Of a stretch of DNA of 44,761 nucleotides, positions 5,511 through 20,799 are shown piece by piece. The position numbers and the translations under genes are program-made. The notes below the pieces were generated by a model that searched no databases, was not told where the DNA came from, and saw nothing but the letters and a program-made list of their open reading frames with translations. Source of the DNA: an uncultured Oscillospiraceae bacterium (GTDB lineage: Bacteria; Bacillota; Clostridia; Oscillospirales; Ruminococcaceae); NCBI GenBank assembly GCA_964423365.1, contig CAYRFC010000003.1:1-44761 (forward strand). Direction: 5' to 3'. How positions within the stretch are numbered: the stretch's first letter is position 1; every line of letters begins with the position of its first letter.

Positions 5511-6371
5511 TTGAATCCCTTAACCGACCTTTCCTCCATCCGTGCCCTCTGCCAAAAGCACGGCATACGCCCCCAAAAAGGCTTTGGGCAAAACTTTCTG
5601 GTGAACCCCAGCGTCTGCCCCAGGCTGTGCGACGAGGCCGGTGTGGGGCCGGGCAGCAGGGTGCTGGAAATAGGCCCCGGCATTGGCACCCTCACGGCGG
5701 AGCTGGCCCGGCGGGCCGGGCAGGTGCTCTCGGTGGAGGTGGACCGCCGCCTTCTGCCCGTGCTGGAGGAAACGCTGGCGGAGTTTGACAACCTGCGCAT
5801 TTTGCAGGGGGATATTCTAAAATTGGATGTCGCCCAGCTTCTGCGGGAGGAATTCGGCGGCCCGGCCATTCTTTGCGCCAACCTGCCCTACAACATCACC
5901 AGCCCCATTCTGATGAAGCTGCTGGAGGAGCGGCCCGGCCTTTCCAGCCTGACCGTGATGGTGCAGAAGGAGGCCGCCCAGCGCCTCACCGCCGCCACCG
6001 GCACCCGGGAGGCCGGGGCCGTGACCTATGCGGTGCATTACTACGCCCAGCCGCAGCTTTGCTTCACAGTAAAGCCCGGCAGCTTCTTTCCTCCGCCCAA
6101 GGTCACCAGTGCGGTCATCCGGCTGGATATCCGCCCCGAAACCGCCCTGCCCCCCGGCTCTCTGGCCGAAAAGCAGCTCTTTTCCCTCATCCGGGCGGGC
6201 TTTTCCCAGCGCCGCAAAACCCTGCCCAACGCCGCCGCCCAGCTGCCTGGGCTGTGCAAGCAGCAGGTGGAGGCCGCTCTTGTCTCGCTGGGGCTCTCGC
6301 CCGCCAGCCGCCCAGAGCAGCTGCATCTTGGGCAGTTTTTGCAGCTGCAGGCCCTGCTGTGGCCGGGCTGA
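5511..6371 (+). CDS. rsmA: 16S rRNA (adenine1518/1519-N6)-dimethyltransferase
   Basis: KsgA/RsmA motifs GQNFL, EIGPGIGTLT (SAM binding) and NLPYNI. Start set to TTG 5511, 7 nt after CAGGAGG. The upstream part of ORF 5400..6371 has no RBS. Confidence 0.9.
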   Translation: MNPLTDLSSIRALCQKHGIRPQKGFGQNFLVNPSVCPRLCDEAGVGPGSRVLEIGPGIGTLTAELARRAGQVLSVEVDRRLLPVLEETLAEFDNLRILQGDILKLDVAQLLREEFGGPAILCANLPYNITSPILMKLLEERPGLSSLTVMVQKEAAQRLTAATGTREAGAVTYAVHYYAQPQLCFTVKPGSFFPPPKVTSAVIRLDIRPETALPPGSLAEKQLFSLIRAGFSQRRKTLPNAAAQLPGLCKQQVEAALVSLGLSPASRPEQLHLGQFLQLQALLWPG

Positions 6372-6469
6372 TTATGCCGTCCAGAGTCACCGGCCAGCCT
6401 CACAGGAAAAAACCACCCAAAGGCAGCTTATAACTGTCGAAGAAGGCCCCCTAGCAGGGAAGGGGGCTT

Positions 6470-6503
6470 GGGGGAGAGGGGCTGCGGCCCTCTCCCCCAT
6501 TTT
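6470..6503 (+). terminator. rho-independent terminator of rsmA
   Basis: GGGGGAGAGGG / CCCTCTCCCCC 11-bp stem with a 7-nt loop, followed by ATTTT. Confidence 0.75.
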
Positions 6504-6573
6504 AACAATCACGCCTTTTGGCGATAACAGGACAATACTTCAGGCAGATGAAGTCTCTGCCAAAAGGCCGGTT

Positions 6574-6636
6574 CCGCTTGTCAAAAAAGTGTTCCACTTT
6601 TTTGACAAGCGGAAAGCCGCCCAAAGGCGGCTTTCC
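6574..6636. terminator. two tandem perfect hairpins between convergent rsmA and csp
   Basis: 6574..6612: 18-bp perfect inverted repeat CCGCTTGTCAAAAAAGTG-TTC-CACTTTTTTGACAAGCGG. 6611..6636: 11-bp stem GGAAAGCCGCC-CAAA-GGCGGCTTTCC. Lies immediately downstream of the csp stop. Confidence 0.5.
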
Positions 6637-6648
6637 GTGTCACGCAGA

Positions 6649-6861
6649 TTAGGCAGGTTGAACGTTGATTGCACGCAGCTTTTCACTGTTCTTCGGGTCC
6701 TGCTCCACGTCGTAGGTCACGTGTTGGCCTTCTTGCAGGGTCTTGAAGCCATCCACCATGATGCTGGAGAAATGTACAAAAACATCGTCTCCACCTTCGT
6801 CGTTCGAAATGAACCCGTAGCCTTTGCTCTCGTTGAACCACTTGACAGTACCTTTATTCAT
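6649..6861 (-). CDS. csp: cold-shock protein (CspA family)
   Basis: 70 aa, [18 protein letters not shown] with RNP1 KGYGFI and RNP2 VFVHF. ORF 6649..6981 trimmed to ATG 6861 behind CAGGAGG. Confidence 0.95.
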
Positions 6862-6997
6862 CCAAAGATACCTCCTGAAAGTTTTTAGCATTTCTCCTGC
6901 TGCGCACAAAAAAATCACACAGTGCCGTATCCATGAAACGAACTCATGATTTACAACAAGGTGTGAAATCAGGTCGTACATTCAAAACACTACCCAG

Positions 6998-7026
6998 ATT
7001 ATAGCACCCTCCCTAAAAAAAGTAAA
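6998..7026 (-). promoter_or_regulatory. promoter of csp with extended -10 and long 5' UTR
   Basis: Minus strand reads TTTACT, 17 nt spacer, TGcTATAAT (-10 at 6998..7003). Leaves a leader of about 130 nt, as is usual for csp genes. Confidence 0.5.
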
Positions 7027-7128
7027 GCCATTTTCCGCAAAATTTTTGTGCATAAGTTATAGCCGGGTTGGCGGGCTGCTCACATGACGGCAAAACACCC
7101 ACGCCGCCCGGCTGAAAGGGGATTTTCC

Positions 7129-7545
7129 ATGAAAAGTTACCGTAAGGAATTGCATTTTCATCTGCCCAGCAGGCGGGCACTGGTCAACATCACCCCCGAT
7201 GTGGAGCAGGCCCTGCGTGAGAGCGGCGTGCAGGAGGGGCTGGTGCTGGTCAACGCCATGAACATCACCGCCAGCGTGTTCATCAACGACGACGAGGCCG
7301 GCCTGCACGCCGACTATGAGCGCTGGCTGGAGAGGCTGGCCCCGGAAAAGCCCTACAGCCAATACAGCCACAACGGCTTTGAGGACAATGCCGACGCTCA
7401 CCTGAAGCGCACCATCATGGGCCGGGAAACCGTGGTGGCAGTGACGGGCGGGCGGCTGGATTTTGGCACCTGGGAGCAAATTTTTTACTATGAGCTGGAC
7501 GGCAAGCGGGCCAAACGCGCCCTTGTAAAAATCATCGGAGAGTAG
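7129..7545 (+). CDS. yjbQ: YjbQ/UPF0047 family protein (secondary thiamine-phosphate synthase-like)
   Basis: 138 aa, family-typical sequence ([38 protein letters not shown]). ATG 7129 behind GAAAGGGG. Confidence 0.85.
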
Positions 7546-7605
7546 GGGCACCGCCCCCTCGTAAGCTGGCTCTCTCCGCCGAAAAGCGCCCTTTAGAGCC
7601 TACTG

Positions 7606-7659
7606 AAAAGAGCTGTTGCGGACGATTCTTTTGAATCGCTTTGCAACAGCTCTGTTTTA
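7606..7659. terminator. bidirectional terminator between yjbQ and the 7657..8112 gene
   Basis: GAGCTGTTGC ... GCAACAGCTC stem with inner CGATTC/GAATCG pairing. Flanked by AAAA upstream and TGTTTT downstream. Confidence 0.7.
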
Positions 7660-8112
7660 TATCGGTTCATCGTCCTCGTTTTTGGGCGGGGCCTGGCTTA
7701 TGTCCAGCAGTTCATACTCCTGCAATTCGTCAAAGCTATCCAGCGCTTCCAGCTCCCGCTCCATCACGGCCCCCTCCTCGTCCAGCATCCGTGCCGCGCC
7801 GGTGGCCATCTGCTCTTCGTCGATGCCCGCCTCGGCCAGCCACTCCTCCTCCTCGGCCTTGCGCTTTTCCTCCTCGGCCTTTTGCAGTTCCAGGGCCTCT
7901 GCTTCCTTCTGCGCCGCCAGTTCTTTCGCCTCGCGCCGGTAGCGTACCACGCTTAAAATGGCCGCGCCCACCAGCCCCGCGCTCACGGCCAGCAGCAGCC
8001 ACTGCTCGCCTCCCCACTGGGAGAAGGGCATTTCCACAAGATTGCGCACATTGTTATAGGCCATGAAGACCAGCAGGGCCGCTACAATCAACTTCCACAT
8101 AGGAGATTTCAT
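7657..8112 (-). CDS. hypothetical membrane protein with acidic coiled C-terminal half
   Basis: 151 aa. Two hydrophobic helices, then KEAEALELQKAEEEKRKAEEEE and an acidic tail. RBS AAGAGGAA. Confidence 0.7.
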   Translation of the reverse strand: MKSPMWKLIVAALLVFMAYNNVRNLVEMPFSQWGGEQWLLLAVSAGLVGAAILSVVRYRREAKELAAQKEAEALELQKAEEEKRKAEEEEWLAEAGIDEEQMATGAARMLDEEGAVMERELEALDSFDELQEYELLDISQAPPKNEDDEPI

Positions 8113-11433: not shown

Positions 11434-12489
11434 CTATCTATTGTTATACATATTTTCGTAATAGTCCATGTAAGCGCCCGAGGTGACCCCACGCAGCCAG
11501 TCGCCGTTGTCCAGGTACCACTGGATGGTCAGCTCAATGCCGTCCTCAAAGCAGGTTTCGGGGCTCCAGCCCAGGGCCTTTTGAATCTTCTCGGGGTCGA
11601 TGCCATAGCGGCGGTCATGGCCCTTGCGGTCGGCCACGTATTTGATGAGGCCCTCGTCCACGCTGGCGTCCACCTTGCCGCTCACAAGGCCAATCACCCT
11701 TTTCACAATGTCGATGTTGGTGCGCTCGTTGTGGCCGCCCACATTGTATACCTCGCCCACATTGCCGCCGCGCAGCACCATGTCGATGGCCTTGCAGTGG
11801 TCCTCCACATACAGCCAGTCCCGCACGTTTAAGCCGTCGCCGTATACCGGCAGGTCTTTTTTGTTGCAGGCGTTGTGAATCATCAGCGGAATCAGCTTTT
11901 CGGGGAACTGGAAGGGGCCGTAGTTGTTCGAGCAGCGGGTGATGTTCACCGGCAGGCCATAGGTGTCGTGCCAGGCCATCACAAACATATCTGCCGCGGC
12001 CTTGCTGGCCGAGTAGGGCGAGTGGGGGCAGATGGGGGTGCTCTCGGTGAAGAAGCCGGTGTCTCCCAAGGAGCCATACACCTCGTCGGTGCTCACCTGC
12101 AAAAACTTCACCCCGTCGGGGTAGGCCCCGTCCTTCTCCCAGGCCTCGCGGGCACAACTCAGCAGGTTTACGGTGCCCATCACGTTGGTCTTGGCGAAGA
12201 TGCCGGGGTCCTCAATGGAGCGGTCCACATGGCTCTCTGCGGCAAAGTTCACCACCGCCTCAATCTTGTAGGTCTCCATCAGGCGGCTCACCAAGGCGCG
12301 GTCGCCAATATCGCCGTGCACAAACACATGGCGGGGGTCGTCCTCCACGCTGCGCAGGTTTTCCAGGTTCCCCGCATAGGTCAGCTTGTCCAGGTTCACC
12401 AGCTTCACGTCCTCGTGCTTGTCCAGCATATACAGGATAAAGTTGGAGCCAATAAACCCGGCCCCGCCGGTCACCATAATATTTTTCAT
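11434..12489 (-). CDS. rfbB: dTDP-glucose 4,6-dehydratase
   Basis: 351 aa. GGAGFIGSN Rossmann motif and YSASKAA (YxxxK). Confidence 0.95.
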   Translation of the reverse strand: MKNIMVTGGAGFIGSNFILYMLDKHEDVKLVNLDKLTYAGNLENLRSVEDDPRHVFVHGDIGDRALVSRLMETYKIEAVVNFAAESHVDRSIEDPGIFAKTNVMGTVNLLSCAREAWEKDGAYPDGVKFLQVSTDEVYGSLGDTGFFTESTPICPHSPYSASKAAADMFVMAWHDTYGLPVNITRCSNNYGPFQFPEKLIPLMIHNACNKKDLPVYGDGLNVRDWLYVEDHCKAIDMVLRGGNVGEVYNVGGHNERTNIDIVKRVIGLVSGKVDASVDEGLIKYVADRKGHDRRYGIDPEKIQKALGWSPETCFEDGIELTIQWYLDNGDWLRGVTSGAYMDYYENMYNNR

Positions 12490-12540
12490 TCTTCAGCCGT
12501 CCTTCCCCATGAGAAATTCATGTACCGTTTTCAAGCATTT

Positions 12541-13428
12541 CTAGATGTCGTTTTTCCTCTCGGCCATATAGGCCGCCAGCGCCTCCTGCCAGGGGCGCAT
12601 ATGGTCGCCCACCGTGGCGCGCAGCATGGCATGGTCCAGCGCCGAGTAGGCCGGCCGCTTGGCCGGGGTGGGATATTCCGCCGTGGTGCAGGGCTTCACC
12701 TTCGCCCCCGTTCCGTCCAGGCGCACAATCTCGGCTGCAAAATCGTACCAGGAGCAGATGCCCTGCCCAGTGCCGTGGTAGAGGCCGTACTCCTCACCCT
12801 CTGCCAGCAGCAGCAGGTGATAGGCCAGGTCCTCGGCGTTGGTGGGGTTGCCCAGCTGGTCGTTCACCACTGTGATTTCCCCTTTTTCCCGGGTGATTTT
12901 CAGCACGGTTTTTACAAAATTGCCTCCCTCCCGGCCATACAGCCAGGCGGTGCGCACAATAAACCAGCGGCTGCAAAAGCCCCGCACGTACTCCTCGCCC
13001 AGCAGCTTGGTTCTGCCATAGGCCGAGCAGGGGGCCGGGGGCTGGGCCTCGCTAAAGGGCACATCCCCCTCTCCGCTGAAAACATAGTCGGTGGAGACAT
13101 GCAGCAGCTTGGCCCCTGTTTTTTCGCAGGCCATGGCCAGGTTGCGCGGGGCCAGGGCGTTGGCCGCAAAGGCGGCGTCCTGCTCGGTCTCGCAGCCGTT
13201 TACGTTGGTGTAGGCCGCGCAGTTCAGCACGATGTGAGGCCGCAGCCCCTCCACCATGGCCAGGGTCTCCTCTTTTTTAGAGAGGTCGCAGTCCTCTATG
13301 TCCACACAGTGCACCTCGGCACCCAGCAGGGCGGCGGGCAGCGGGCCCAGGGCACTTTTGCCCGCCTGCAGCTGCCGGGCCAGCTCCTGGCCCAGTTGGC
13401 CCTTCGCGCCGGTAATCAAAATCTTCAT
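12541..13428 (-). CDS. rfbD: dTDP-4-dehydrorhamnose reductase
   Basis: 295 aa. ITGAKGQLG and YGRTKLLGE (YxxxK), RmlD-like throughout. Confidence 0.9.
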   Translation of the reverse strand: MKILITGAKGQLGQELARQLQAGKSALGPLPAALLGAEVHCVDIEDCDLSKKEETLAMVEGLRPHIVLNCAAYTNVNGCETEQDAAFAANALAPRNLAMACEKTGAKLLHVSTDYVFSGEGDVPFSEAQPPAPCSAYGRTKLLGEEYVRGFCSRWFIVRTAWLYGREGGNFVKTVLKITREKGEITVVNDQLGNPTNAEDLAYHLLLLAEGEEYGLYHGTGQGICSWYDFAAEIVRLDGTGAKVKPCTTAEYPTPAKRPAYSALDHAMLRATVGDHMRPWQEALAAYMAERKNDI

Positions 13429-13431
13429 GTG

Positions 13432-14325
13432 TTATACCTCGGCCGTATTTCCGGGGGCCACCGTCTCGGCAATGTGGAAAAGATACTGCCCGTATTCGGT
13501 TTTTTCCAGTTGCTTGGCCCGCTCCAGCAGCTTCTCCTTGTTCATGAAGCGCTGGCGGTAGGCTATTTCCTCCAGGCAGGCAATGTACAGGCCCTGCCGG
13601 GTTTGCACAGCCTCCACAAAGTTCGAGGCGTCCTGCATGGCGCGGTGGTTTCCGGTGTCCAGCCAGGCCATCCCCCGGCCAAACAGCTCCACCTTCAGCT
13701 CGCCCATGGCGAGGTAGGCGTTGTTCACCGAGGTAATCTCTATCTCCCCGCGGGCCGAGGGCTTGACATTTTGGGCGATGTCCACCACCCGGTTGTCGTA
13801 GAAATACAGCCCCGGCACGGCGTAGTTGCTCTTGGGGTTTTGGGGCTTTTCCTCCAGAGAGAGCACGTTCCCGGCCCCGTCGAACTCCACCACCCCGAAC
13901 TCCCGGGGGTTCGCCACATGGTAGCCGAAGACCGTGGCCCCTTTCTCGCGCCCCGCGGCGTTTTTCAGCCGCTCTGTGAAGCCATAGCCATAGAAGATGT
14001 TGTCGCCCAGCACCAGGCAGACACTGTCGTGCCCGATGAAGTCCCGGCCCACAATAAAGGCGTCGGCCAGGCCCCGGGGCTCTGCCTGCACGGCATAGCT
14101 GAACTCCACACCAAGGTTCTCCCCGGTGCCAAACAGCCGCTCAAAGCCCGGCAGGTCGGTGGGGGTGGAGATGATGAGAATCTCCCGGATGCCCGCCAGC
14201 ATCAGGGTGGAAACCGGGTAATAAATCATCGGTTTATCATAGATGGTCAGCATCTGCTTGGACACGGCAATGGTGGAGGGATAGAGCCGTGTTCCGGCGC
14301 CTCCGGCAAGCACAATTCCCTTCAT
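13432..14325 (-). CDS. rfbA: glucose-1-phosphate thymidylyltransferase
   Basis: 297 aa. [14 protein letters not shown] signature, RmlA-like throughout. RBS AAGGAG. Confidence 0.95.
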
Positions 14326-14360
14326 ACGGTCGCTCCTTTATTTTTTCTATTCAAAGGCCT

Positions 14361-15131
14361 TCATTTCCAGCGAAAGCCCCACTTCCGAAAATAGCGCCCC
14401 ATGCTTTTCAGCTGCCAGAAAAACTGGCGGGGCCTGCGGTGGGCCGCCCGGTGCCAGGCGTGGGCCACCGTTACCTGCGGCAGGTACACCGCCCGGCCCC
14501 TTTGCAGGGCCTTCTGGGTCAGGTCGGCATCCTCCACATACATGAAGTAGCCCTCGTCGAAGCCGCCCATCTCCTTAAAAACCTCGGTGCGTATCACAAA
14601 AAAGGAGCCGCTGCAAAACTCCACATCGGTGGGGCGGGAGAGGTCCTCCCCCTCCATGAGGTAGTGGGCCTCGTAGGGTTTTAGAAAACCCAGCCCGGTT
14701 TGCCGGGCCAGCAGGGGCAGAAAGGCGGGCCGCCGCTTGGCAATGGCCTGGGGCCGCCCGTCCGGGTATACCAGCCGGGGAATGGTGATGGCCACATCGG
14801 GGTGTGCCTCCATCCAGGCGGCCATCTGGGAGACGGCATCATCCCACAGCAGGATATCGGGGTTCACCACCGCGTGGTAGCGGCTGTCCAAAAGCGGCAG
14901 CACGGCGTTGTGCCCCGCGCCAAAGCCCCGGTTCACCGCCTGGGGCAGGGCCTCTACATTCGGGGGCAGGCCCCCGGCTTCCAGGCTTTGCAGGGCGCCG
15001 TCGGGCGAGGCGTTGTCCACCAAAAACACCCGCAGGGCTTCCCCTTCGTGCTGCCACAGGCTTTCCAGGCAGGCGCGGGTCTCCTCCGCGCCGCCATACT
15101 GCACCACCGCTGCGCTCAGCTTCGGGCTCAT
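14361..15131 (-). CDS. family 2 glycosyltransferase (rhamnosyltransferase-like)
   Basis: 256 aa. GT-A fold signatures (VDNASPDG, YVEDADL). ATG overlaps the stop of the upstream Ctp-like gene (ATGA). Confidence 0.85.
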   Translation of the reverse strand: MSPKLSAAVVQYGGAEETRACLESLWQHEGEALRVFLVDNASPDGALQSLEAGGLPPNVEALPQAVNRGFGAGHNAVLPLLDSRYHAVVNPDILLWDDAVSQMAAWMEAHPDVAITIPRLVYPDGRPQAIAKRRPAFLPLLARQTGLGFLKPYEAHYLMEGEDLSRPTDVEFCSGSFFVIRTEVFKEMGGFDEGYFMYVEDADLTQKALQRGRAVYLPQVTVAHAWHRAAHRRPRQFFWQLKSMGRYFRKWGFRWK

Positions 15132-16573
15132 CCGGCGGTGGCCCTGCCGGACTGGGAGGAAGACGAGGAGACGGCCGAGGTGGAGGAGGCTGCCGTAGAG
15201 GCACTGCCCGCCTCCGCCCCACTGCCCGAAGCGGCGCTTTGGACGGCAGAGCCGCTCTCGGCGGCAGAGGCGGCGGCACTTTCGGGCTGCTGGCTGGTCC
15301 CCGCGGTGCCCGGCTGGCCTTCCGCGGGCTGTGCCGGGGGTTGGTACTGGATGGAGAGTTGGTTGTTGCCGGCTGCGGTACGCACCACCTCCAGCGCACG
15401 CAGAATCTGCTGGTCGGCGCCGGGGTTCGGAGTATAAAGGTTCACGGTCTGGTTGTCCTCATCCACCAAAATCTCCACATCGGGCACGATGCCGGTTTTG
15501 TCAAAGCTCTCATCCTGCCCGGTGAGAAGCTGGGCGGTGGTGATGGAGATGGCCGAGCCGTCGGTGAGCTGCTGGGTGGCGCTTTGCAGCATGCCCTTGC
15601 CGGCGGTGGTGGTGCCCACCACGCTGCCGCCGCAGAGGTTCCGTATGCTGATGGCAAACAGCTCTGCCCCGGCGGCGGTGTTTTTGTCGGTGATGGCCAC
15701 CATGGGCAGCCGCACCACATTCTCGTCGTCTGAGGTGGCCAGCACCTTCACGGTGCCGTTTTTCGCCACACTTTTGGCCACCGTGCCCCGGGGGGCCAGG
15801 TAGTCGATGGCATTGTACACCTGCTGATACTGCCCGCCGGTGTTGCCGCGCAAATCAAACACAAGGCCCTGGGCGCCGTCCGCCATGGCTTGCAGTACCG
15901 CGCCGTCCAGCTCGGTGCTGGTGTTCTTTTCAAACGAGCTGATGCGGATGTAGCCGAAATCTCCACATTTCAGATACTCCACCGTGGGGGCCGTGTAGTT
16001 GATGCGCTGCACCTCGTAGCTGGCCTCCTGGTTTTCGCGGCTGATGCAGCCCAGGGTGACGGTGGTGCCCTGGGCGCCGCGCAGCAGGCTCACCATGGCC
16101 TTGCTGCTGGTCAGGCTTTTCACATCGGCCCCGTCCACCGTAAGAATGCGGCTGCCCGCCTGCACGCCGGCCTTCTCGGCGGGGGAGTCTGGATACACAC
16201 GCTCAATGTAGAACAGGCCGTCGGCGTTGCGGCTCACCTCCACGCCAATGCCCACCCGCGTGCCGTTCTCATACTCCTGCAGCTCGGTGTAGTCTTTTTC
16301 GGAATAATAGGTGGCGTAGGGGTCCTCAATGCCGCGCAGATAGCCCTGGGCCACCAGGTCATTCAGCACGGTGTCGTTCACCTCGCCAAAATAGTTGTTC
16401 CGCACATAGGTGTCCACCTCCAGCAGCTTTGTGTAGGTGGCCTGCTTTTGTGTTACCGACTGTACGGCGCGGTTAAAATAGTCGGTGGCCACCAGCCAGG
16501 TGATGGCAAAGGTGACCGTGACCGCGATGAGGGTGATGGTGAGCGCTACGCTCACCGTAACTTTTTTTGTCAT
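15128..16573 (-). CDS. S41 (C-terminal processing peptidase, Ctp/Tsp) family homologue, nucleophile Ser replaced
   Basis: 481 aa. N-terminal TM anchor and a PDZ domain (VYPDSPAEKAGVQAGSRILTVDG). S41 core TTAGKGMLQ and GIVPDVEI conserved. The SASASE nucleophile motif reads TAAGAE. Ser/Ala-rich C-terminal tail. Confidence 0.9.
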   Translation of the reverse strand: MTKKVTVSVALTITLIAVTVTFAITWLVATDYFNRAVQSVTQKQATYTKLLEVDTYVRNNYFGEVNDTVLNDLVAQGYLRGIEDPYATYYSEKDYTELQEYENGTRVGIGVEVSRNADGLFYIERVYPDSPAEKAGVQAGSRILTVDGADVKSLTSSKAMVSLLRGAQGTTVTLGCISRENQEASYEVQRINYTAPTVEYLKCGDFGYIRISSFEKNTSTELDGAVLQAMADGAQGLVFDLRGNTGGQYQQVYNAIDYLAPRGTVAKSVAKNGTVKVLATSDDENVVRLPMVAITDKNTAAGAELFAISIRNLCGGSVVGTTTAGKGMLQSATQQLTDGSAISITTAQLLTGQDESFDKTGIVPDVEILVDEDNQTVNLYTPNPGADQQILRALEVVRTAAGNNQLSIQYQPPAQPAEGQPGTAGTSQQPESAAASAAESGSAVQSAASGSGAEAGSASTAASSTSAVSSSSSQSGRATAG

Positions 16574-16627
16574 TCAGTCCTCCATGGGGGAGTTTTGGGC
16601 CAGGGCGGGAAGGGGAACAGACCCAGG

Positions 16628-17812
16628 CTAGCCCTTCAGGTAGTTCAGCGGGTTTTGCCGCGCGCCGTTGGCATGCACCTCAAAATGCAGGTGCGGGCCG
16701 GTGGAAAAGCCGGTGGAGCCCACAAGCGCAATGGGCGTTCCCTGCTCCACATAGGTGCCCGCCCCCACCAAAAGCTGGGAGGCATGGGCGTACAGGGTTT
16801 TCACACCGTCGCCGTGGTCTATGATGATGTAGTTGCCATAGCTGGAATGGGTGGTGGCCGTGATGACCGTGCCCGCACCGGCGGCCAGGATATTGTCTCC
16901 GCTGGGCGCGCCGATATCCATGCCCAGATGGCCCCGGCCCGCAGGGTCGGGCGCGCCAAAGTGGCAGGTGATGCGATAGGAGGAGGGCACCGGCCAGATG
17001 AACACGCCGCCCACATACTGGCTGCCGTCGCCCGAGGAGCTGCCGCCCATATAGCGGGTGGCTGCCAGCATTTCTTCATAGGCCGCCTTGGCCGCGGCCA
17101 CCTCGTCCTCTTTGTTTTCGTAGGCCTGCTCCTGCGCGGTCACCTCCGCCTGCGCCTGGCTGATGGCGGAATCCTGCGCGGCGATATTCCCCGCCAGCAC
17201 CTGGGCGTTGTTGGCCAGCTCTGCGTAGGCGTTGTTCAGGTCCACCAGCAGGGCGTCAATCACCGCCTGCTCGGCCTCCAGGGCGGCGCGCTGCTCGGCC
17301 ATCATGGTCAAAAGCTCGCTGTCGTGCTTCGAGATGCGCTGCAAAGCGTCCACCATCTGCAAAAGCTCGGAGAAGCTGTCCACTGAGAGGGCGCGGGACA
17401 GCATGCTGGAGTCATTCATCTTATAGATGGCCACCAGCCGCTGCTGGAAAAGCTGGTCATTCTCATAGATGAGCTGCCGTTTTTGGGCCACCTCGGCCTC
17501 TTTTGCCTCCAGCGCCACGGTGGTTTGGGCTATCTCCTCCTGGTTCAGGCGAATCATCTCGTCCACCACGGTTTTTTCCTGTGCCAGCTGGGCGCGCACC
17601 TGCTCGGCAGCGGCCTGGCTGCCCTTGGCCTCGTCTATGGCCTCGCCAATGCCCGCCAGCTCCCCTTTCAGCCGTTCATACTTCTCCTTGGGCGTCTCGG
17701 CATGCACCGGCGCCGCCAGGGTGAAGCCCATGAGCAGTGCACAAAACAGGCAGCCCAGGCGCAGCCGCAGCTCCGCCCTGGGTGCTTTCTCTGGCAAACG
17801 GTTGTGTTTCAT
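16628..17812 (-). CDS. coiled-coil M23 peptidase (EnvC/PcsB-like FtsEX partner)
   Basis: ORF 16628..18121 trimmed to ATG 17812, because the longer form overlaps ftsX. Signal/anchor sequence, about 230 aa predicted coiled coil, C-terminal M23 domain with intact HLGMD and HLHFEVH. Confidence 0.85.
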   Translation of the reverse strand: MKHNRLPEKAPRAELRLRLGCLFCALLMGFTLAAPVHAETPKEKYERLKGELAGIGEAIDEAKGSQAAAEQVRAQLAQEKTVVDEMIRLNQEEIAQTTVALEAKEAEVAQKRQLIYENDQLFQQRLVAIYKMNDSSMLSRALSVDSFSELLQMVDALQRISKHDSELLTMMAEQRAALEAEQAVIDALLVDLNNAYAELANNAQVLAGNIAAQDSAISQAQAEVTAQEQAYENKEDEVAAAKAAYEEMLAATRYMGGSSSGDGSQYVGGVFIWPVPSSYRITCHFGAPDPAGRGHLGMDIGAPSGDNILAAGAGTVITATTHSSYGNYIIIDHGDGVKTLYAHASQLLVGAGTYVEQGTPIALVGSTGFSTGPHLHFEVHANGARQNPLNYLKG

Positions 17813-17931
17813 GGCAGTTCCTCTTCTTCGGGCTTTTCCATTATGGGGGGAAAAGGTGTGTATTGTATGGAAATTTTGGGCAATGCCACTTTTGCGGCGC
17901 GGCCCACACGGCCTGTTTGCACCAGCCGCCC

Positions 17932-18831
17932 CTACACTTTCAAGTGCTTGCGCACGCTGGTGGCGGTGCCAAAGCCGCCTATAAACACCCCGAACACCGC
18001 AAACCCGGCCACCACATAGGGCCAGATGACATCCAGCGTGAAGATGTTGTGCATGATGCTCATAATCCAGGTATTGTACATATCCATGAGATAGTTGTAC
18101 ACAAAGTAGTAGCCCGCGCACACCAGCCCCGCCGCCAGCACGCCGGAAATCAGCCCCACCGTCATGCCCTCCACAAAGAAGGGCAGGCGGATGAAGGTAT
18201 TGGTGGCGCCCACATATTTCATGATGGAAATCTCCCGCCGCCGGGCAAACACGGTGAGGCGGATGGTGTTGCTGATGACGATGACCGAGACCACCGCCAG
18301 AATGGCCACCAGCCCCAGCCCGCCGTAGGTAACGGCGTTCTTGATGGTGATGATGATGCCGGTGAGGTCGGTGGGCATTTGGGTGTAGTCCACCCCGGGC
18401 AGGGCGTCCAGAGCGGTGCCCGTCTGCTCCATCAGGGTCAGGTCCTCCACCGTCACAAAAAAGCGGGCGGGGAAAATCTGCTCATAGTTGTTCAGCACAT
18501 TGCCGTAGGTTTCCAGCCACGCCTGCACCTGGGTGAAGGCGTCGGCCTTGGATTCATAGGTCACCTCCAGCACATTGGGCATGGCGGCTATCTGCTCGTT
18601 CATGGCGGCGGCCTGGTCGTCCGGCACCTCGGGCGAGAGATAGACCACAATTTCGTTCTGGTTCGCCATATAGTTCACCAGGCTGTTCACGTTGATGAAC
18701 ACCAGGGTGGCAATGCCGGTGATGATGAGACAGGCGGTGAGCACACCCACCGAGGCAAAGCTCATCAGGCGGTTGGCCGCCATGTTTTTCCAGCCCTGTT
18801 TAATAAGGTAACGGAGAGAGGAGAGCCTCAA
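17932..18831 (-). CDS. ftsX: cell division permease-like protein FtsX
   Basis: 299 aa. FtsX N-terminal pattern (LRYLIKQGWKNMAANRLMSFASV), extracellular domain and a C-terminal 3-TM bundle. TTG start overlaps the ftsE stop (TTGA). Confidence 0.9.
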   Translation of the reverse strand: MRLSSLRYLIKQGWKNMAANRLMSFASVGVLTACLIITGIATLVFINVNSLVNYMANQNEIVVYLSPEVPDDQAAAMNEQIAAMPNVLEVTYESKADAFTQVQAWLETYGNVLNNYEQIFPARFFVTVEDLTLMEQTGTALDALPGVDYTQMPTDLTGIIITIKNAVTYGGLGLVAILAVVSVIVISNTIRLTVFARRREISIMKYVGATNTFIRLPFFVEGMTVGLISGVLAAGLVCAGYYFVYNYLMDMYNTWIMSIMHNIFTLDVIWPYVVAGFAVFGVFIGGFGTATSVRKHLKV

Positions 18832-19550
18832 AACGCGTCGCCCCCCTTCCCGGTGAAATCATCGGCCACCACTTCCCCGTGGTCGATGGTGATGATGCGC
18901 TCTGAAAAGCGCTGGGCCAGGTCGTGCTCATGGGTAACCACCACCACGGTGGTGCCCACCATGTTGATGGCTTTTAGCAGCTCCATGATTTCCACCGAGA
19001 GCTCGGGGTCGATGTTGCCGGTGGGCTCGTCGGCAATGATGATGGGCGGGGAATGCACCAGCGCACGGGCCAGGGCCACCCGCTGCTGCTCGCCGCCCGA
19101 AAGCTCGCTGGGCAGGCTGCGCGCCTTGCCCGCCAGGCCCACCAGGTTCAGCACATAGGGCACCCGCTTTTTAATCTCCTTTTCGGGGATATTGGTAACG
19201 CGCATGGCAAAGGCCACGTTCTCAAACGCCGTCATGGTGGGGATGAGGCGGAAGTCCTGAAAGACCACGCCCAGGCCCCGCCGCAGGTAGGGAATATCCC
19301 GCTGGCGGATGCGCGAAAGGTCGCGCCCGCCCACCGTCACCCGCCCCGTGGTGGCCACCTCTTCGCGCAGAATCAGCTTTAAAAAGGTGCTTTTGCCCGC
19401 GCCGGAATGCCCCAGCACAAACACAAACTCCCCCCGGCGAATCTCCAGGCTCACGTCCTGCAAGGCCGTTACCCCGCCGGGGTACACCTTGCCCACGTGT
19501 GTCATGCTAATCATCACCGAATCGTTTGAGACAATTGGTTTTTTTGCCAT
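18828..19550 (-). CDS. ftsE: cell division ATP-binding protein FtsE
   Basis: Walker A GHSGAGKST, signature LSGGEQQRV, Walker B IIIADEPTG. ORF trimmed to ATG 19550. Confidence 0.9.
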   Translation of the reverse strand: MAKKPIVSNDSVMISMTHVGKVYPGGVTALQDVSLEIRRGEFVFVLGHSGAGKSTFLKLILREEVATTGRVTVGGRDLSRIRQRDIPYLRRGLGVVFQDFRLIPTMTAFENVAFAMRVTNIPEKEIKKRVPYVLNLVGLAGKARSLPSELSGGEQQRVALARALVHSPPIIIADEPTGNIDPELSVEIMELLKAINMVGTTVVVVTHEHDLAQRFSERIITIDHGEVVADDFTGKGGDAF

Positions 19551-19656
19551 GCTACCAACCTTCACTTTACAGATAATATCCCCCAAAGCGCATGGCACTG
19601 CGCCGCACCGCTGCCTTTTGGGAATGGCCGCCCTCTTTGCCGCAGGAACAGTATAA

Positions 19657-19710: not shown

Positions 19711-20799
19711 TCAATATTTGGCCGCGCTGGAGTTCAGGTACTTCTTCACCATCAGGGCCACCTTGAACACGATGGCGTCATCGAACTCGCGCAGATCCAG
19801 CCCGGTGAGCTTCTTGATTTTTTCCAGCCGGTACACCAGGGTATTGCGGTGCACAAACAGGCCGCGGCTGGTCTCACTTACATTGAGGTTGTTCTCAAAA
19901 AAGCGCTGGATGGTGAACAGGGTCTCCTCGTCCAGGCTGTCGATGCTGCCCTGGTTGAACACCTCTTTGAGGAACATCTCGCACAGGGTGGTGGGCAGCT
20001 GGTAGATGAGCCGGGCGATGCCCAGATGGTTGTAGCTGATGATGGGCTGCTCATTGTCGAACACCTTGCCCACTTCCAGGGCAATCTGGGCCTCCTTGAA
20101 GCTGGCGGAGAGGTCTTTGATGTTGGAGATGGGGGTACCGATGCCCACCACGGCTTTGATATAGTGCTCGCCGTTCAGGGTATCCACAATGGAAGCCGCC
20201 AGCTTCTCCACGTCTTTTTCGTCTATTCCACGCCGTATTTCCTTCACCAGTACGGTGTCGGTTTCGCTGGCGTTGAAGATAAAATCCTTCTGTTTGTCTG
20301 GGAAAAGGCCGCTCACCACCTCAAAGGCGGAGATATCGGTGCTGCTGACCACCCGGATGAGCAGCACCACCCGGGCCACATCGGTGGCGAAGTGCAGCTC
20401 CCGCGCCTTGGCAAAGATATCGCCGGGCAGGATATTTTCCAGCACCACATTTTTGATAAAATTGGATTTGTCAAATTTTTCGTCGTGATATTGCAAAATA
20501 TTTTGCAGGCTGAAGGCCAGCAGGGCCGCCGTTTTGGCCGCCGGGGCACCCTCTCCCTGCACAAAAGCCGCATAGTTGCCCCCGCCGTCGGAGGGGAACA
20601 CATGGTAGCTGGCCCCATTTTTCACAAAGCCGCCGTCCTCGGTCTCGGCCAGCAGCTCCACCAGCTCGGCATTGGCCTCGCCCACGCGCGCAATGTCGGT
20701 GCAGGAGACGACCACGCCCTCCATGTCCACCACACCGGCCGTTTCGTCCAGCACATCCCGCATCTGATACAGAACACCTTGGAATACCCGGTTCGCCAT
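19711..20799 (-). CDS. CdaR/PucR-family transcriptional regulator
   Basis: 362 aa. C-terminal PucR-type HTH (FVHRNTLVYRLEKIKKLTGLDLREFDDAIVFKVAL). Confidence 0.85.
   Translation of the reverse strand: MANRVFQGVLYQMRDVLDETAGVVDMEGVVVSCTDIARVGEANAELVELLAETEDGGFVKNGASYHVFPSDGGGNYAAFVQGEGAPAAKTAALLAFSLQNILQYHDEKFDKSNFIKNVVLENILPGDIFAKARELHFATDVARVVLLIRVVSSTDISAFEVVSGLFPDKQKDFIFNASETDTVLVKEIRRGIDEKDVEKLAASIVDTLNGEHYIKAVVGIGTPISNIKDLSASFKEAQIALEVGKVFDNEQPIISYNHLGIARLIYQLPTTLCEMFLKEVFNQGSIDSLDEETLFTIQRFFENNLNVSETSRGLFVHRNTLVYRLEKIKKLTGLDLREFDDAIVFKVALMVKKYLNSSAAKY

Follow-up and report, generated by a model that had tools for sequence, protein, structure and literature searches.

Proteases of the Ctp type (family S41) commonly regulate cell-wall hydrolases by degradation. 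CtpA of Pseudomonas aeruginosa (PaCtpA) degrades the M23 enzyme MepM and NlpC/P60 enzymes, and Prc degrades MepS (PMC6050968). The catalytic triad of CtpA is Ser302-Lys327-Gln331; that of CtpB from Bacillus subtilis (BsCtpB) is Ser309-Lys334-Gln338 (PMC8764530). The S302A change abolishes the activity of CtpA in vitro and yields a trap that co-purifies MepM and other wall hydrolases (PMC6050968). FtsEX, in turn, is a central paradigm for the licensing of wall cleavage in division. Pseudo-proteases and degenerate regulators from hydrolase families are well known, among them the LytM factors, the Csp proteins of Clostridioides difficile, iRhoms and IRBP. In this study, we analysed a stretch of 44,761 nucleotides from an uncultured Oscillospiraceae bacterium of the gut (contig CAYRFC010000003.1 of assembly GCA_964423365.1), which is called the window as a whole. 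We focused on a gene on its minus strand (15128..16573) that lies in an ftsEX-M23 module and encodes an S41/Ctp homologue of 481 amino acids (aa) without the nucleophile serine, hereafter the window protein. It is probable that this protein is a selected pseudo-protease that works non-catalytically with FtsEX.

The gene was characterized by its open reading frame (ORF) and translation, Pfam, an AlphaFold2 model and Foldseek; all features given here are on the minus strand unless marked otherwise. From the N-terminus, the protein consists of a transmembrane (TM) anchor, a long stalk helix, a PDZ domain, the S41 core, C-terminal helices and a disordered tail. The Peptidase_S41 domain (aa 206-368; 15470..15958) matches PF03572 at 6e-35, with 120.7 bits against a cut-off of 24, over model positions 2-165 of 165. 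The PDZ domain (aa 105-188; 16010..16261) is recognized by Pfam PDZ_6, PDZ_2 and PDZ, and its carboxylate-binding loop, G108-I109-G110 (16244..16252), is intact in the motif table. The sole hydrophobic segment in a Kyte-Doolittle scan covers about aa 4-33 and holds the TM anchor (about aa 6-29; 16487..16558). The GIVPD motif is kept, and so are G246-G247 of the DLRGNTGG loop (15833..15838), which motif comparison showed to be degenerate in many members of the clade described below. The tail (aa 403-481; 15131..15367) is of low complexity and rich in Ser, Ala, Gln and Gly; it is predicted to be disordered, with a predicted local distance difference test score (pLDDT) <50 at 433-476, and is fast-evolving as judged from the ratio of nonsynonymous to synonymous substitution rates (dN/dS). 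The CtpB_N-like Pfam match to the protein was sub-threshold. NCBIfam TIGR00225 'prc', the best general model, gave 192.7 bits, under its cut-off of 218.6, and the scores with all named Ctp equivalog models were far under their cut-offs.

From an alignment of 34 sequences, AlphaFold2 gave a model with a mean pLDDT of 86 and a predicted TM-score (pTM) of 0.76. It comprises a single long helix at aa 7-60 (TM anchor plus stalk), the PDZ domain, the S41 core and two C-terminal helices (372-401). A Foldseek search of the PDB returned CtpB, the P. aeruginosa CtpA-LbcA complex, H. pylori CtpA (HpCtpA), D1 protease and Prc, with probability 1.0, E-values of about 1e-30 and TM-scores of up to 0.81 when normalised to the target. 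As modelled, the CtpA/CtpB fold is retained by the window protein. An earlier reading of the letters alone (the sequence-only reading) had described a TM anchor, a PDZ domain and a general-base Lys, and had proposed a check against PF03572 and a structural model. The Kyte-Doolittle scan, Pfam and the alignments bore out the first three, and both the PF03572 score and the match of the model to CtpB and CtpA agreed with the S41 assignment. No S41 paralogue was found elsewhere in the window by tblastn with five S41 queries.

The position of the catalytic serine (S302 of PaCtpA, S309 of BsCtpB, S430 of Tsp) is occupied by Ala301, encoded by GCC at 15671..15673, in pairwise, profile and multiple alignments. 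When the PDB was searched with phmmer, 'kntaagaelfa' of the window protein was placed over 'ggsasaaeiva' of wild-type PaCtpA without gaps and with full posterior probability, and BsCtpB was aligned in the same ungapped register. The entries that scored highest in this search are the S->A mutants. A profile of the clade and multiple alignments of 120 and 151 sequences gave the same register, with Ala301 ungapped at the nucleophile column. The equivalences with PaCtpA and BsCtpB are therefore A301 = S302/S309, K326 = K327/K334 and Q330 = Q331/Q338. By comparison with the triads of CtpA and CtpB, the window protein thus has Ala301, Lys326 and Gln330; the stretch K326-G-M-L-Q330 (15584..15598), with the general-base Lys and the triad Gln, is kept. 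The peptide VAITDKNTAAGAELFAISIR, which the sequence-only reading had re-translated by hand, is present in the translation of ORF 15128..16573. Its claim that an S41/Ctp homologue in the ftsEX-M23 module lacks the nucleophile Ser agrees with the pairwise, profile and 120-sequence alignments, and its anchoring on the conserved Glu and Lys, with 25 residues from nucleophile to Lys, was correct (A301-K326). It had also pointed to an Asn at the position of Tsp Asp441. This Asn is real (N312), but the position is Asp in most Ser-less relatives and T, S, D or N in Ser-bearing Faecalibacterium orthologues, so that judging from these sequences Asn312 is not diagnostic for catalysis in this subfamily. 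Only the Ser has been lost from the window protein (plus D312N), which keeps Lys326, Gln330 and both the GG and the PDZ GIG loops. Ser fills the nucleophile column in 100% of 54 Ser-bearing relatives and in no member of a 25-sequence clade that includes the window protein, which argues that Ala301 is not there by chance. With Ala at this position no acyl-enzyme could form, and proteolytic activity has presumably been lost.

Compared with CtpB, PaCtpA (with LbcA), HpCtpA and E. coli Prc/Tsp (with NlpI), the window protein has the same PDZ plus S41 architecture, the same fold, the triad Lys and Gln, and the RGNxGG and GIVPD motifs. A thematic link to peptidoglycan hydrolases is shared as well. 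In contrast to these proteases, the window protein carries Ala for Ser, the very change used in the laboratory to kill or trap such enzymes (S302A, S309A). It also differs in its N-terminal TM anchor, its place in an ftsEX operon, the absence of an evident adaptor lipoprotein and its score under the TIGR00225 cut-off. The phmmer search of the PDB also matched vertebrate IRBP (RBP3; 9frx) to aa 204-368 at 1.2e-10. IRBP is not a protease; it shares the S41 fold, but it is a eukaryotic retinoid carrier with no PDZ domain and no FtsEX context.

The state of the nucleophile is shared by the close relatives of the window protein. At the nucleophile column, Ala or Gly stands in each of the 20 closest word-indexed homologues (identities between 91% and about 41%), and Ser in those further away. 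Species representatives of GTDB, scanned with 12 closer sequences, gave 80 loci. Among these, 15 uncultured Oscillospiraceae/Ruminococcaceae genomes carry Ala, Gly or Glu, and all Faecalibacterium, Gemmiger and Anaerofilum orthologues read TASAAELFA...GKGTIQ. The window protein is the positional orthologue of the Ser-bearing Ctp in these three genera, and the Ser-bearing orthologues are predicted to be active. Trees were inferred by neighbour joining only, with the catalytic columns masked. The clade of 25 sequences, all with A, G or E at the nucleophile column, was monophyletic in 60 of 60 bootstrap replicates (100%). Mean pairwise identity is 0.56 within this clade and 0.77 within the Ser-bearing Faecalibacterium/Gemmiger/Anaerofilum group; the Ser-less state has therefore been held over the greater divergence.

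The substitution pattern points to constraint. By the Nei-Gojobori method (NG86), comparison of the window gene with L006, its closest relative, gives a dN/dS of 0.097 for aa 1-400, and the S41 domain by itself gives 0.081. The folded part gives 0.14-0.22 against L007 and L008, and the disordered tail 0.38-0.71. On these sequence data the gene is under purifying selection and is neither decaying nor a strain lesion. An artefact of sequencing or assembly, or a recent lesion limited to this strain in a gene that is becoming a pseudogene, would need no more than a one-nucleotide change (TCC->GCC), and the source is uncultured, with no record of an identical protein elsewhere. However, about 25 independent assemblies, with identities that fall to about 44-50% within the clade, share the Ser-less state; the ORFs are intact and full-length, dN/dS is about 0.1, and this explanation is effectively refuted. 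The sequence-only reading had proposed to ask whether orthologues also carry Ala. They carry Ala, Gly or Glu throughout the clade, and the state recurs independently outside it, so that a conserved state rather than a strain lesion is indicated.

The TM anchor is among the best-conserved regions of the protein (region-wise identity 0.67 versus 0.56 overall). In a matched comparison the TM helix and stalk were the best-conserved regions in both the Ser-less and the Ser-bearing clades. A seemingly higher conservation of these two regions in the Ser-less clade vanished in this comparison and was rejected as a sampling artefact of a more diverse comparison set. The conservation common to both clades would fit a specific membrane-proximal contact.

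Loss of the serine is not confined to the main clade. Every replicate (100%) groups the Ala-bearing sequences P0020, P0022 and P0024 with Ser-bearing P0021 and P0023, and none groups them with the main clade. The Gly-bearing P0028 and P0030 are united as a clade in 100% of replicates, and 75% place them with Ser-bearing P0025 and P0027; P0030 is from the named species Anaerotruncus massiliensis. P0031, with Gly for the nucleophile and Phe for the Lys, and P0032, with Gly and Gln, stand apart in the tree, and monophyly of all Ser-less sequences was obtained in 0% of replicates. These topologies support independent loss of the Ser in at least three further lineages. Secondary catalytic decay also recurs in the independent Ser-less lineages.

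An exhaustive HMMER search of 1.84 billion cluster representatives returned 37,145 relatives. Among the best 150 of the 37,145 (representatives of clusters at 50% identity), 88 keep both Ser and Lys and about 60 (about 40%) are without one or both, a fraction that is not an unbiased prevalence since the ranking is by similarity to a Ser-less query. The substitutions at Ser and Lys among these 150 are very heterogeneous. One distant relative, P0112 (29% identity, on a 362-kb contig), reads TAAGAELFA and has Arg for the Lys (GRVSLQ); it is apparently another independent Ser-less S41 homologue. The Anaerotruncus-type homologue (P0030, and P0180 at 6001..7830 of locus L086), of about 606-609 aa, carries five additional residues within its RGNxGG loop (RGVSITSSGTS) and is much extended at the C-terminus. 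Because P0030 comes from a named, cultured species, it could serve as an experimental handle.

Columns of the 25-member Ser-less clade were compared with those of the 54 Ser-bearing relatives. Positions S301, A300, K326, G327, G246/G247 and G108/I109 are invariant or at least 98% conserved in the Ser-bearing proteins and relaxed in the clade. There, column 301 is Ala in 60% and Gly or Glu in the rest, K326 is kept in 68% and G327 in 72%. The corresponding values are 80% for G246 and 72% for G247 in the RGNxGG loop, and 68% for G108 and 60% for I109 in the PDZ loop. About a third of the clade has Gln, His or Arg in the Lys326 column, and changes in sublineages include GKG -> GKW, RGNxGG -> NAGN, NADG, NATS or TNAG, and GIG -> D[IV]G. 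Structural columns are still fixed in the clade, namely D240, R242, E304, G320, G325, D338-G339-S340, T345 and G361. Judged by its residues, the window protein is the minimal case of catalytic decay in the clade. One subclade (P0009, P0010, P0012, P0013, P0015, L012 and L013) has Trp after the Lys (GKW), together with DIG for the PDZ GIG and NAGN for the RGNxGG loop; the bulky Trp may plug the former catalytic cleft.

It could be argued that the window protein is still an active protease in which the nucleophile has migrated, for example to Thr299 or to another Ser or Thr near Lys326. It keeps K326, Q330 and both the GG and the PDZ GIG loops intact, T299 is nearly invariant, and another hydroxyl may lie near K326. 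Migrated catalytic residues occur in some apparent pseudoenzymes (PMC10211241). However, T or S is present at 299 family-wide, beside the true nucleophile in Ser-bearing forms (TASAAE, GSASASE), and a residue that coexists with the true Ser is not its replacement. CtpA S302A is inactive although the Ser two residues upstream of the nucleophile is kept. Relatives of the same clade have Q, H or R for the Lys, no longer have the GG loop and read GKW for GKG, a pattern expected only if catalysis is unselected, and the same decay is seen in independent Ser-less lineages. Continued proteolysis through a migrated nucleophile is therefore very unlikely. The window protein instead combines homology to an enzyme family without an essential catalytic residue, purifying selection on its gene and relaxation of other catalytic residues in its relatives, properties expected of a pseudoenzyme. 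The prediction of a pseudo-protease in the sequence-only reading is supported by the register, the clade-wide Ser-less state, purifying selection, the CtpA/CtpB fold and the secondary decay in relatives.

The genomic context links the protein to FtsEX. The order PucR-like gene, ftsE, ftsX, M23 gene and S41-like gene is found in the Ser-less loci of the main clade (the window, L001 and L002). The same module occurs in the independent Ser-less lineages L005, L086, L087, L088 and L089 and in the Ser-bearing loci L003 and L004; the short contig of L089 ends upstream of ftsX, and the order was confirmed there for ftsX, the M23 gene and the S41-like gene. Linkage of the S41 or S41-like gene to ftsEX was observed in the window and in all 11 inspected loci, from both Ser-bearing and Ser-less lineages. 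At L090 (2273..4423), a strongly degenerate member with Glu at the nucleophile and Asp at the Lys lies 36 nt after ftsX with no M23 gene, so that the linkage to ftsEX is independent of the M23 gene. In B. subtilis, ctpB lies next to ftsEX.

The window ftsE (18828..19550), encoding an ABC ATPase (Pfam ABC_tran), has a likely start at MAKKPIV that gives 240 aa as in orthologues (L001), and it overlaps ftsX by 4 nt. The FtsX protein (17932..18831; 299 aa, the same length as in L001 and L002) has an FtsX_ECD and a permease domain by Pfam. The next gene (16628..17812) encodes a coiled-coil M23 peptidase of EnvC architecture with a signal peptide, 394 aa from MKHNRLPEK, matched by Pfam M23 and CC_PcsB; a gap of 54 nt separates it from the S41-like gene. 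The mechanical ORF starts overshoot in two cases: the M23 ORF, listed as 16628..18121 from a GTG at 18121, overlaps ftsX and has a likely start at the ATG at 17812, and the ftsE ORF, listed as 18828..19598, has a likely start at 19550. The scan for promoters and terminators gave weak consensus matches only, with no convincing terminator between the M23 and S41-like genes.

The M23 protein aligns over aa 46-391 with E. coli EnvC (6tpi, 4.5e-19) and carries HLGMD, YAH and HLH where EnvC is degenerate. These motifs (HxxxD, H, HxH) are invariant in 81 of 81 M23 sequences from the loci, beside Ser-bearing and Ser-less S41 genes alike, as the sequence-only reading had noted for the window, and the M23 neighbour looks catalytically competent. 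That reading had called the arrangement the reverse of the E. coli FtsEX-EnvC system. The description is fair for the catalytic residues, but the E. coli module has no S41 partner, and the closer analogy is with Gram-positive FtsEX, which controls an active hydrolase directly (PcsB, CwlO). At L086, the gene between ftsX and the S41-like gene was considered as a degenerate M23 gene and rejected, since a direct hmmscan identified a normal M23 with intact motifs. The Ser-bearing locus L003 (3266..5627, with P0021) has two tandem M23 genes, of 394 and 378 aa, between ftsX and ctp.

The S41-like gene is also coupled to a gene downstream. The ATG of a GT2 glycosyltransferase gene (14361..15131; Pfam and ORF coordinates) overlaps the S41-like stop codon (ATGA, 15128..15131). 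It is followed on the same strand by rmlA-like, RmlD, rmlB-like and proB-like genes (GT2 to rml span 11434..15131). It is conceivable that the window protein is non-catalytic but unrelated to FtsEX and M23, either serving the downstream GT2 and dTDP-rhamnose polysaccharide pathway or acting as a general extracytoplasmic PDZ chaperone or adaptor, the position beside ftsEX being a historical leftover. The ATGA overlap with GT2, the rml-type genes behind it and their conservation in L001 and L002 speak for a polysaccharide role, as does the presumptive nature of any contact with FtsX or M23. However, only the window's clade has the GT2/rml linkage. In the other lineages without the Ser, ftsE-ftsX is kept directly upstream and greA, an rRNA methyltransferase or HTS lies downstream of the S41-like gene, so that the constant neighbour is ftsEX. 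The ftsEX linkage survives much greater divergence, even without M23 (L090), and we regard a function detached from FtsEX as rather unlikely.

On the reading that the window protein is a pseudo-protease working with FtsEX, it would be a single-pass membrane protein that exposes an extracytoplasmic PDZ domain and S41 body, with Ala in place of the nucleophile. Its main selected role would be non-proteolytic: tethered to the membrane, it would serve FtsEX, the M23 hydrolase under FtsEX control, or both as a structural or regulatory partner. The protein might position, stabilise or gate the M23 hydrolase, or partner FtsX directly. Proteolysis would then be an accessory activity, dispensable and discarded repeatedly. 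Since it has lost only the Ser, the window protein resembles the laboratory S->A substrate-trap mutants, and by this analogy it may still bind a peptide tail without cutting it. However, the PDZ carboxylate-binding glycine and the Lys are lost in several members of the clade, so that binding of peptide tails, as in a pure substrate trap, is not the common function of the clade. The extended form of the reading, which we hold only tentatively and think may well be wrong, is that Oscillospiraceae and related Clostridia build their FtsEX divisome-hydrolase complex with the FtsEX-linked Ctp homologue as a core structural cofactor. In such a complex the TM helix and stalk would dock on FtsX, the PDZ/S41 body would hold or gate the EnvC-like M23 or another wall enzyme, and proteolysis would be optional.

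Several observations weigh against a pseudo-protease partnered with FtsEX. The loss of proteolysis is inferred from residues alone, with the possible hydroxyl near K326 mentioned above, and the association with FtsEX and M23, the contact with either and the role as scaffold or regulator likewise follow from inference. Degeneration of the PDZ loop and of the Lys in some members of the clade leaves the conserved function undefined at the residue level. The translational coupling to GT2/rhamnose genes in the window's clade offers an alternative functional link. In addition, the C-terminal tails of the adjacent M23 proteins contained no Ctp-recognition signature that separates Ser-less from Ser-bearing loci; their differences follow the clades.

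Known regulators offer partial parallels. The degenerate LytM factors EnvC, NlpD and DipM follow the same logic: a hydrolase-family domain without catalytic residues is kept as a regulator of division or the wall and is linked to FtsEX. The window protein differs in belonging to the serine protease family S41 rather than the metallopeptidase family M23, its regulatory role is putative, and the EnvC-like M23 protein of the window keeps all metal and catalytic residues. As in the Gram-positive complexes FtsEX-PcsB, FtsEX-CwlO with SweC/SweD, and FtsEX-RipC, the window FtsEX stands beside a competent-looking coiled-coil hydrolase (CC_PcsB match), though its hydrolase domain is M23, not CHAP or NlpC/P60. 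There is precedent for extra membrane cofactors that are essential to an FtsEX-hydrolase complex (PMC6705773). The S41 homologue has no similarity to SweC or SweD and is a candidate member of such a complex. Catalytically dead protease homologues with signalling or binding roles are also described in Clostridia, namely CspA and CspC of C. difficile (PMC7200643). The Csp proteins, in contrast, are subtilisin-like and act in spore germination.

The gene upstream of ftsE (19711..20799) encodes a PucR-like regulator of about 361 aa with GGDEF_2 and HTH_30 domains (Pfam). It stands directly upstream of ftsE wherever upstream DNA is present (the window, L001-L005, L086-L088 and L090), which suggests that the PucR-like protein is a dedicated transcriptional regulator of the ftsEX module in Oscillospiraceae. 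Long ORFs of 470-840 aa on the plus strand, opposite real genes (11875..14394, 15890..17386 and 17737..19158), have no family support; they are typical of DNA with 61% GC and are probably not genes.

In a full-text literature search, neither a Ser-less S41 homologue from bacteria nor an operon of the type ftsEX-M23-ctp was found to be described, although the term 'S41' was swamped by journal DOIs. A 2024 review of FtsEX mentions no protease or PDZ partner. Relatives of the window protein are annotated publicly as 'S41 family peptidase' or 'PDZ domain-containing protein', and for Ser-less proteins the automated label 'S41 family peptidase' is functionally misleading. Faecalibacterium belongs to a major group of gut anaerobes in which the ftsEX-M23-ctp operon is widely conserved, with a Ctp component that is repeatedly without the triad and strongly selected. 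Such recurrent loss of the triad under selection implies that a member of the Ctp family has a role other than proteolysis in the FtsEX module, and the natural Ser-bearing and Ser-less orthologues make this role testable. If the Ctp homologue is indeed a cofactor of FtsEX, it would represent an unrecognised class of FtsEX partners and a bacterial family of S41 pseudo-proteases, with a logic like that of the degenerate LytM factors.

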